A stretch of DNA of 20,165 bases from IMG/VR virus record IMGVR_UViG_2684622619_000022; one strand, written 5' to 3'. A program made the position numbers. How positions within the stretch are numbered: the stretch's first letter is position 1; every line of letters begins with the position of its first letter. Positions 3,001-6,000 of the stretch are shown here, piece after piece. The stretch comes from a virus (lineage: Duplodnaviria > Heunggongvirae > Uroviricota > Caudoviricetes).

Positions 3001-6000
3001 CGGGATGAAGGTAGATTTGGTTTGAAGGGTATCTGGTGTCCCTGCAGGAATCGAAAAATTAGCTAACAATTTGAATTGTAGTTTATTTCTCTTTCGATTT
3101 TGGTGAGTGCCCCAATAGGTGCCCCCAAGCGTTGTGATCAGAAATGCTGGTTTTTACCTGATGAAACAAGCCTGACGACCTTTCAAATTTTATTCTGATT
3201 TTACGATCAATAGCTCGTTTTTTATCCGGTAGTAAGTCGCTCGGCTGATTCCTGCTGCCTTCATGATGAGTTCAGGTTTTACTCCTTGCTCCAACATCTC
3301 TCTAACGATCTCTCGGGCTTCCTGATTTTTCGCCCTCCCAATGTATATGCCTTCGCTTTTAGCTCGTTCAATGCCTTGCTGTTGGCGTTTACGGCGTGTT
3401 TCGTAATCCTGCCGTGCCATTGTGGCAAGGATATCAATCAACATGGCATTTACGGCTCTCAGGATGCCGCTGGTTAGATCATTGCCTGCCATCTCGACCA
3501 TCTGCCAGCTCGTTGGTAAATCCATTGATACGATGATTAACCCTTTTCGGTTGAGCGTATCTTTCAGTTCGACCCATGCACTATGTTCTAGGCGACTCAG
3601 ACGATCTATAGCTTCCACTAGCAACAGATCGCCGGACTGGGCTTCAGACAATAGCCGCATAAGCTCTACGCGCTCAAGCTTCGCCCCGCTAGCATTTTCT
3701 ATATACTCTCCTGCAATCTGCCAGCCTTTTGATTTTGAAAATTCACGTAGGCTGGTAAGTGCTCGATCAGCGTGTTGCCCCTCAGTTGATGCTCGGCAGT
3801 AAATTCTAACGTTCATTGCATTGTCTCAAAAGGGTTGTGAATATAAGTGCAAATGATACATAATGCAGTTTGTGTAGTCAAAATGTTCCTATACAACCCT
3901 ATTGAGACTTTGTATCACCTTGTCATTACGGTATACCCAATTGAGACAATGATAACGGCTGGTGTTTAAGGTGATATATTGAGCTAGCCGAAAGAAACAG
4001 CCCGACACCGTTTTTACCGTATGAGATAATTTGTTGTGCTGGTGGGGTTGCTTGCCAGTACTTGGAATGGTACAAATCTGTACCATTGTTCGACGGTCTA
4101 TTAACAAGGAGTGTTAAGATGGAAAAAGACCTGAAAGAGTTGCGGGAATACCTATTACTTTCCCCCGTCTATTCTGAAATTAACGATTGTCTGGCTAGTC
4201 TCTCAATGGAAGACGTGACCAATGAAGAGTTCGCGGAACGTTTGGGAATTGCTCCTGATTGGATGGATGCTATAGATACTAGCCAACTTGCTTAAGAAAG
4301 GATGCGCCATTGCTGGGCGCGTTTCTCATTTCTCCCGTAGCACTACGCATACCTTCTAATAAATTTCACCATCAAAATCAGTAGATTGATAAAATGTCAC
4401 TCAAATCTGTCATAAGTATCACAATTTTTAAACCTAATTGAAATATAATGTTATTAGATATTATCTAATGGAGGTAGTTTAATGTCTTATGCGTTGATTG
4501 ATAATGCTTCGTTAACAGCAGTCGAAAGAACACTGGGTGATATTCTTGTTAAGAATCCAGATACTATTAACGGAGATTTAGTCGCTTTTGAAAATCTTAT
4601 TCAAGCGATACTTTTTTACGATACCCTGATCTGTGTAGATAATTATAAAAAAGAATATAGAGATAAACGCATTGCTAAATTTGACTTTATTAAATTTGTA
4701 TCTGAAAGTGATTTTCAACTCAGTGAACTTGATCAGTTAGCACAAGTTGAATCTCGGCAAATTACTTCCGAAATTAGAGGTGGGGAGTTTGTTGACGATG
4801 ATTTTAGGCAACTTGTAGAGATGCTTAAGCTGAATATGATTTGCACATGGGATCTTCGGTCTAGCGTGTATTACTTAACAATGAAAATGCTTGGTCAGCC
4901 CGGTACTCCTGAATATGCGAAATATAGTGAACTAAGTGCATCGATTTTTAATGAATTATCAGATGCTTCTGATACGAAAGGGTACTGGTCAACCGATGTG
5001 AAGCTAGTGAGTTCATCTGGACATGAATATACTGAGCGTGAATTTGAACTAGAAAGGGAAAAATCTACTCGCGGTAAAGGAGGTATGACTCGTTCACTTG
5101 AAATGTTTATCGCATCGCTAAATTGGTTGGCATATAAATCTATTTATTACAGCGTCATTGCTAAGCATTTTAAAGCAGACTCATTTATTCATCCAATAAG
5201 GCATGCATATCAATTGCATTGGATGAAAAAAACAGGTGCTTTTGGTCATGATTATACTGCAAGGTTGGTGCAATCGTTGTCTGATAAAATCAGTACTGCA
5301 AGATCTGAAATTGTAGATCATGGACGCACATCTACTATTTCATTAGATTTACCAATATTTTCTGCATGGCTAGCAAACGAAACAGGAAATGTCTCTCAAG
5401 TTATCAATTCAGCTTTAGAGCTTAGAACACATGATCATTTTCGTACGTGTCGAGATGTAATCCGAGAGATTCATGTGACCTACGATGAATCGGGGATAAG
5501 TGCAGGAAATAAAAAAGTAACAAAATTACTAAGTGATTTAGATAAAATATCTGGAGATATTAAACGAAGCTACGGTGTTCCATCAAATCAAGGTATTCAA
5601 GGCAGTTTTTTGATAAAATGTATAAATTCATTGACAGGACTCGTGGGTATTCCAGGTTTGCCTGATAAAGAGTTTGCACTGAGCACTCCTGAATTTATGA
5701 AGTCTAAACAACATAAAGCATTTTCTACCGTTTTCAAGGATGTTACTAACGAACTAACAAGCATTGAACGTTTAGGTGGGCTTCGGGATAAATTAGCGTC
5801 GAACTTTACTATTGATGATTCTTATTATACCGAGCCAAAAACAGAGGATCCGAGATTCCGTTACGTAAGTAGTAATTGGAAGCAGCCAATGTAGATATAG
5901 TTAAATGTATAATTATAAGTAATAACAATTTACAGACATTATTGAATTAAAAATATTGCGTTAGGGTATAATATCTAACGCAATTAGATTGAAAAGTTAA

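Follow-up and report, generated by a model that had tools for sequence, protein, structure and literature searches.

The window analysed here is the whole 20,165-nt stretch of the IMG/VR virus record IMGVR_UViG_2684622619_000022 (Caudoviricetes). It contains a gene for a 470-aa protein, which we found to be a self-contained single-gene mobile module without a conserved neighbour. By megablast, a map of open reading frames (ORFs), and Pfam scans, the window belongs to Escherichia coli O157:H7, and its positions 317–11660 were 100% identical to other O157:H7 chromosomes. The gene lies on an island between the csc sucrose genes (cscK, 359–1273; cscB, 1345–2592) and the tRNA-Arg(CCT) gene argW, and E. 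coli genomes without the island have 2593–3055 joined directly to tRNA-Arg. A first-pass annotation, made from the sequence alone, had described an AT-rich 'two-gene cassette' of a 58-aa ORF and the 470-aa gene as cargo of a tRNA-linked island. The island is bounded by 16-bp direct repeats, and both ORFs were located where they had been placed. The GGAGG Shine-Dalgarno (SD) sequence, the TATAAT hexamer, the SD of the small ORF, and its terminator-like hairpin were also present (Table 1).

Table 1. Features of the argW island in the window, in order of position.
Feature	Position	Strand	Remarks
Direct repeat of 16 bp, CCCTGCAGGAATCGAA, matching the argW 3′ end	3040–3055 and 11592–11607		3040–3055 is the far boundary of the composite island; 11592–11607 lies at the argW 3′ end
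Serine recombinase, resolvase/invertase type, 208 aa	3190–3816	−	Pfam Resolvase, 2.2e-23; far end of the island; found with all cargo variants
58-aa acidic ORF, pI 4.05	4119–4295	+	Backbone, left edge of the cargo slot; AAGGAG upstream
Terminator-like hairpin closing the 58-aa ORF	4300–4324	+	Backbone, just before the module boundary
Swappable cargo module: 470-aa gene plus 155 nt before and 162 nt after it	4327–6056		blastn against locus L036 (825 + 330-aa cargo): homology is lost after 4326 and starts again at 6057
TATAAT, −10-like hexamer inside the module	4444–4449	+	Sequence
Shine-Dalgarno GGAGG	4470–4474	+	7 nt before the ATG; ATGGAGG motif common to the Dickeya and Salmonella copies
470-aa protein, WP_000119352.1, 'hypothetical', pI 5.9	4482–5894	+	Orphan family
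Hairpin GCGTTAG-N10-CTAACGC downstream of the 470-aa ORF	5958–5981	+	Comparison of the window with locus L044
Short tandem repeats ACCAAAAAAGTG x1.9 and GTTGAC x3.7	6127–6179		Conserved backbone, between rep and the cargo slot, ~390–440 nt past the rep stop codon
Truncated HUH rolling-circle Rep, motif HVH	6564–7259	−	97% identity to the L036 Rep; residues 55–284 of a 284-aa protein
tRNA-Arg (CCT), argW, integration site	11585–11659	−	

The limits of the module were given by comparison with E. coli strains in which the same backbone carries another cargo. From the break in homology with the 825 + 330-aa cargo it follows that the module holds the long ORF alone, and only this segment differs from backbones with other cargo. 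Its GC content was 0.345, against 0.449 and 0.425 in the flanking backbone and 0.452 in the whole window. The low-GC segment, with values of 0.33–0.38 across the gene, coincides exactly with the swapped module; the AT-richness noted at first pass is real and sharply bounded.

An intact island of ~8.5 kb was observed in E. coli strain '4' (L035), in the order argW, tyrosine integrase, hypothetical gene, AlpA-type regulator, two small genes (one HTH_17), hypothetical gene, Rep, 470-aa gene, 58-aa ORF, serine recombinase, and cscB. In strains 675SK2, 50579417, and M9682-C1, a pair of genes for 821/825-aa and 330-aa proteins replaces the 470-aa gene on the same backbone. The slot holds a ParA/AAA_31-type ATPase in one other strain and an HNH_5-domain protein in another. 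At least four cargos alternate at one junction region on a single argW backbone (E. coli loci including L035, L036, L048, and L049), and none of the four is a catalogued defence system. In the DefensePredictor results for 3,000 E. coli strains (Table S10 of PMC13092281), the 330-aa member of the replacement pair is labelled 'Predicted novel defense gene', with a mean log-odds of 7.16. Among the DefensePredictor matches listed in the portion searched, the 470-aa protein does not occur, an absence that is uninformative. The backbone was present in 550 of the 5,426 complete E. coli genomes (~10%) and the 470-aa module in 317 of the 5,426, nearly always with ≥99% identity. The module is fixed in the O157:H7/O55:H7 lineage. 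An argW island with a slot for at least four unexplained cargos is previously undescribed.

The 470-aa protein was matched end to end by 233 database proteins of near-equal length, with 54–100% identity. An exhaustive search of 1.84 billion representatives gave 278 clusters at 50% identity, almost all of 450–480 aa and without fused domains. The dN/dS of the gene was 0.07–0.10 against the Vibrio, Dickeya, and Salmonella copies. By the equal length of the homologues, the number of clusters, and the low dN/dS, it is clear that the ORF did not arise by chance, and the gene is under strong purifying selection. Its GC content was ~0.36–0.37 in the window and at loci L038 (V. vulnificus), L044 (Dickeya), and L045, though the host flanks range from 0.40 to 0.53. 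This steady low value points to recent spread from a donor of low GC or to a constraint on composition. The first-pass view of the gene as horizontally acquired cargo without a recognisable domain was borne out. Pfam, NCBIfam, and PADLOC searches all came back empty. PHROGs returned 'unknown function' families only. No copy of the gene was found in 50,697 phage genomes, so the PHROG membership probably comes from prophage-region calls like the window. Among 72,556 plasmids the gene was present in four, none predicted mobilisable, with Pseudomonas megaplasmids among the carriers.

Outside E. coli, the genes around the family member vary. Among the 33 loci compared, with 32 homologues in species-representative genomes, no neighbour ORF cluster was common to more than five, which indicates that the 470-aa gene works alone. 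In many Proteobacteria, the family gene is by its sequence an integron cassette, consisting of the ORF and an attC site. Imperfect hairpins of attC type (TATAAC...GTTAT with single-base bulges, 59–100 nt, −11 to −18 kcal/mol), called by motif and folding check, start 2–25 nt past the stop codon at L003, L004, L005, L021, L025, L038, and L041. Hosts of such homologues include Alteromonas, Shewanella, Halioxenophilus, Nitrosomonas, Ectothiorhodospira, V. vulnificus, and Stutzerimonas. A GTTATA[AG]C core was found 20–35 nt before the ATG in 10 integron-borne homologues, where the leader starts at the core of the preceding attC. In Stutzerimonas (L041–L043), a divergent 319-aa integrase (SAM_4 and Phage_integrase, minus strand) is followed by a 67-aa ORF, the 466-aa gene, and at least eight co-oriented small ORFs, and the homologue is the first or second cassette beside this integron-type integrase. 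Integrase fragments also occurred at L010, L021, and L022. The V. vulnificus homologue lies within a long co-oriented cassette array, and the V. cholerae family members, to judge from contig sizes, probably lie in the superintegron. These cassettes hold the ORF alone, so the cell must tolerate the protein, and the protein must work, with no partner present. A concrete route from an integron cassette family to enterobacterial integrative islands is documented by these loci. For the E. coli copy, a search for a relic attC gave at best the segment from AATAAC at 5921 to GTTAGGG at 5960, which folded at only −0.5 kcal/mol, and a relic is not supported; a different downstream hairpin is common to the E. 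coli and Dickeya copies instead.

That hairpin is kept in the Dickeya solani copy (L044, ~9495–9525) with a longer stem and paired changes (GCGTTAG/CTAACGC vs GCGTTAGAGA/TCTCTGACGC), and it has no T-tract. Upstream of the gene, a consensus promoter scan found no acceptable −35 for the TATAAT hexamer, and the region held 8 promoter-like sites against 10.1 ± 3.4 in shuffles, which is no enrichment. For these two reasons the promoter itself is unproven. Neither an Rfam RNA nor a tandem array was detected in 4327–6056, and no RNA partner (type III antitoxin repeats or a retron-like RNA) was found.

The 58-aa ORF was assigned from its sequence distribution to the island backbone and not to the 470-aa gene as a partner. 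The two ORFs are neighbours in the same orientation, each with its own ribosome-binding site, and the small protein is acidic. It might act as an antitoxin or regulator of the 470-aa protein, in an addiction or toxin–antitoxin-like abortive-infection pair. However, its occurrence is independent of the cargo. The 58-aa ORF was kept (72–77% identical) beside the 825 + 330-aa pair, the HNH protein, and a slot disrupted by an insertion sequence (IS), and it was cut short next to the ParA-type cargo. By tblastn it was found only in E. coli argW islands and beside none of ~45 non-E. coli homologue loci examined. Every homologue outside E. coli was without it, including the integron cassettes. No conserved adjacency of the two ORFs was seen across the homologues. 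The arrangement is also not operon-like, with neither overlap nor a short terminator-free gap: 186 nt separate the ORFs, and this gap holds both the terminator-like hairpin and the module boundary at 4326/4327. The 'two-gene cassette' of the first-pass annotation did not survive, as the 58-aa ORF is backbone that stands beside at least three other cargos or an IS, and the swapped segment begins past its terminator. The pairing is already contradicted by this distribution, and we regard it as hardly credible.

The island in O157:H7 is composite. A Sf6/P22-like prophage remnant replaced the Rep N-terminus and the island's own integrase half. This remnant contains a tail-needle knob, DUF2824, gp7, an ejection protein fused to an acyltransferase fragment, and intS, so the intS beside argW is part of the remnant and not of the island. 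The first-pass description of the island as integrase-bounded is imprecise, since the integrase at argW belongs to the remnant. Similarly, the gene that had been called a 'relaxase remnant' is truncated, but it encodes an HUH rolling-circle Rep and not a relaxase. The full-length island Rep matches REP_ORF2-G2P, and in O157:H7 its N-terminus was lost where it joins the prophage remnant. The tandem repeats between rep and the cargo slot are possible iterons or the island origin.

Other mobile DNA was observed in and around the island. At 8955–10091, a P22 gp20-like DNA-ejection ORF carries a C-terminal Acyl_transf_3 fragment, and GC falls to 0.28–0.35 at 9500–10250; a deletion seems to have joined the ejection gene with the remnant of a Sf6-type O-antigen acetylase. 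Just past argW, 11780–20165 is a lambdoid prophage with a 414-aa tyrosine integrase (11780–13024) followed by ORF6N, MT-A70 methyltransferase, and DUF1627 genes. Only 71 of the 5,426 complete E. coli genomes have a lambdoid prophage at this argW-adjacent place, and the window strain thus carries a stack of three mobile elements at argW. At the other end, 1–316 is the end of IS1203 (IS3 family), inserted 42 bp upstream of cscK, and the IS1203/cscK junction was seen in only one complete genome (strain CEC13091).

The 470-aa protein is predicted to be cytoplasmic, with no hydrophobic segment, signal peptide, or membrane segment. In an alignment of 84 diverse sequences (down to 22% identity), D7, R16, G19, D32, E37, D47, D53, R63, R240, and R324 were near-invariant. 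Conservation was strongest in the first 65 residues; Y55, P238, and P291 were further conserved. The AlphaFold model made with this alignment was compact (pLDDT 83.6, pTM 0.87), against a pLDDT of 63 with an earlier alignment of 38 close homologues. Foldseek against the PDB and viral models gave nothing with E below 0.09, and PDB sequence searches with three profiles (whole shallow, whole deep, and N-terminal domain) gave noise only. A PCNA match (E 0.007) with the shallow profile was not reproduced with the deep profile. The C-terminal residues 464–470 (window 5871–5891; S-x-W-K-x-P-M, then stop) were conserved family-wide to the last residue. The model places them confidently in a strand that packs into the fold, an uncommon position for the end of a protein.

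The N-terminal acidic pocket is probably catalytic. The N-terminal 140 residues gave a weak PIN-like match at the domain level, for which profile comparison gave no support. D7 (after strand 1), E37, and T122-W-D124 lie roughly at the PIN motif positions, and D7 and E37 are near-invariant. D105/D107 are less than 75% conserved. A PIN-like nuclease is a weak lead only.

Defence genes recur around the homologues. The neighbour proteins across the 32 loci included Cap4-type nucleases, HamA, SMC/AAA_21 ATPases, TIR, PIN, and TOTE primase. A complete Hachiman system (HamA/HamB, PADLOC) adjoins the Pseudomonas homologue at L008. The two Hachiman-side neighbour clusters of this locus recur at L014, L029, and L031, and HamA models match four neighbours, so that Hachiman is counted at four Pseudomonas loci. 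ATPases of OLD/AriA-like and LmuB-like type were also adjacent to homologues. The Salmonella homologue belongs to a CP4-type island and has a YfjP-like GTPase on one side and, on the other, AbiGi, Shango SngB/SngC (E 1e-186 and 1e-278), and PDC-S02. The homologues thus recur in mobile and defence contexts, and the absence of such contexts, on which the first-pass annotation would have fallen, was not observed. An anti-phage or abortive-infection function is the best-supported reading of the gene, with a probability of about one in two, and it is drawn from this association. The defence or abortive-infection role proposed at first pass is likewise plausible, by association.

An anti-phage gene of this kind would have to act by itself. 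The 470-aa protein alone would sense and act in anti-phage or anti-mobile-element immunity, probably by arrest or killing of the infected cell. Speculatively, effector activity would lie in the N-terminal alpha/beta domain (residues 1 to ~140) with the invariant cluster D7, D32, E37, D47, D53, R16, and R63, and the weak PIN-nuclease resemblance would suggest that RNA or DNA is cut in a metal-dependent way. The rest of the protein, a helical part of two thirds of its length in which R240 and R324 are invariant, would serve as a sensor or regulator.

Several observations weigh against a defence function or against its nuclease part. D124, the fourth acid of the PIN pattern, is conserved in only 64 of the 84 sequences, and neither the full protein nor 49 N-terminal domains matched any PIN model (E up to 10). 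PIN homology was rejected by sequence, as hhalign with a VapC profile gave a 0.5% probability, a weak negative because the VapC alignment was shallow (≥73% identity). Neither ORF had a Pfam, NCBIfam, or PADLOC match (PADLOC-DB v2.0.0, E up to 0.1). The association expected of defence-island cargo was found in unrelated genomes, in raw counts that carry no genomic background frequency. The Dickeya homologue lies between a sulfatase gene and the ars operon, and several other loci have ordinary neighbours. Many functions other than defence are also encoded by integron cassettes and island cargo. A full-text accession search of the literature found no paper naming the 470-aa protein, and no published phage-resistance test of the family was found there. 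In two integron screens, which gave 16 and 9 defence cassettes, none was described as a domain-less protein of 466–470 aa.

In a second explanation, the gene is adaptive cargo unrelated to phage, coding for an enzyme or binding protein that serves environmental stress, a metabolite, or inter-bacterial competition. Integron cassettes are mostly of varied and unassigned function, and only 18% of the tested V. cholerae cassettes were protective against phage (10.1101/2024.07.02.601686). The neighbour cassettes in V. vulnificus encode acetyltransferases, dehydrogenases, and the like, the genes around the Dickeya copy are of housekeeping type, and the invariant Asp, Glu, and Arg are compatible with any phosphoryl- or nucleotide-handling enzyme. 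However, the homologues have no conserved metabolic partner, transporter, or regulator around them and recur beside Hachiman, Shango, AbiGi, and OLD-like systems in unrelated genera. The E. coli slot is also used by the HNH protein and a machine-predicted defence gene, and the lack of a signal peptide or membrane segment argues in the same direction. We consider adaptive cargo of this type possible, on the doubtful side.

The constant location of the family gene on mobile DNA (integron arrays, the argW island, the CP4-type island, and Pseudomonas megaplasmids) might instead reflect a selfish function for the element, such as counter-defence, exclusion of rival elements or plasmids, or stabilisation of the carrier. 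Anti-defence genes cluster with defence genes too. However, the absence of the gene from the phage genomes and its rarity on the plasmids counted above, which are the usual homes of counter-defence genes, speak against this function, and 470 aa is large for an inhibitor. In O157:H7, moreover, the gene is intact though the mobility genes of the island are destroyed. A selfish role is quite improbable.

Going back to the anti-phage reading, a bolder form of it is that the protein represents a new single-polypeptide immune family, with an architecture unlike solved structures and an N-terminal Asp/Glu/Arg pocket whose chemistry or trigger recognition would be unseen in known defence. The PIN resemblance would then be superficial, and pathogenic E. 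coli would have received the family from chromosomal integrons. This form is unlikely, and we put it forward tentatively. If protective, the gene would be a compact 1.4-kb one-gene system, with no detectable relative among known systems and a confident but unmatched model, and it would be a clean starting point for the study of a new mechanism of sensing or effector action. Its fixation in the O157:H7/O55:H7 lineage could bear on phage-based control or typing of this pathogen.

Compared with the VapC/PIN ribonucleases, the 470-aa protein is without hidden Markov model (HMM) or profile–profile support. Its invariant D32, D47, D53, R16, and R63 fall outside the PIN signature, and its N-terminal domain is embedded in a compact 470-aa protein without an antitoxin partner.

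The P2/P4 hotspots of E. coli, reportedly treated by Rousset et al. in 2022, are said to be variable defence sites of small integrative elements, satellites, and prophages. The argW island resembles them in having a mobile backbone (integrase, AlpA, Rep, and recombinase) with one slot, in which unrelated AT-rich cargos occupy the same junctions. It differs in that its ~8.5-kb backbone, with the HUH rolling-circle Rep and serine recombinase, is neither P2 nor P4.

A close comparison is with the anti-phage cassettes of one gene that Darracq et al. (10.1101/2024.07.02.601686) described from sedentary chromosomal integrons. The family gene was set beside the 16 named systems by description only, and its 1.4 kb far exceeds the size of most of these cassettes. 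It is probably absent from the screened V. cholerae N16961, as judged from two V. cholerae variants on only 133 and 58 contigs. The likeness lies in the arrangement, with an attC behind a single ORF in chromosomal integrons of Vibrio and other types, and in the location of the non-integron homologues in mobile elements near integrases. The 470-aa protein also resembles these cassettes in having no recognisable defence domain, and Belenos and Brigantia are examples of such cassettes without known domains.

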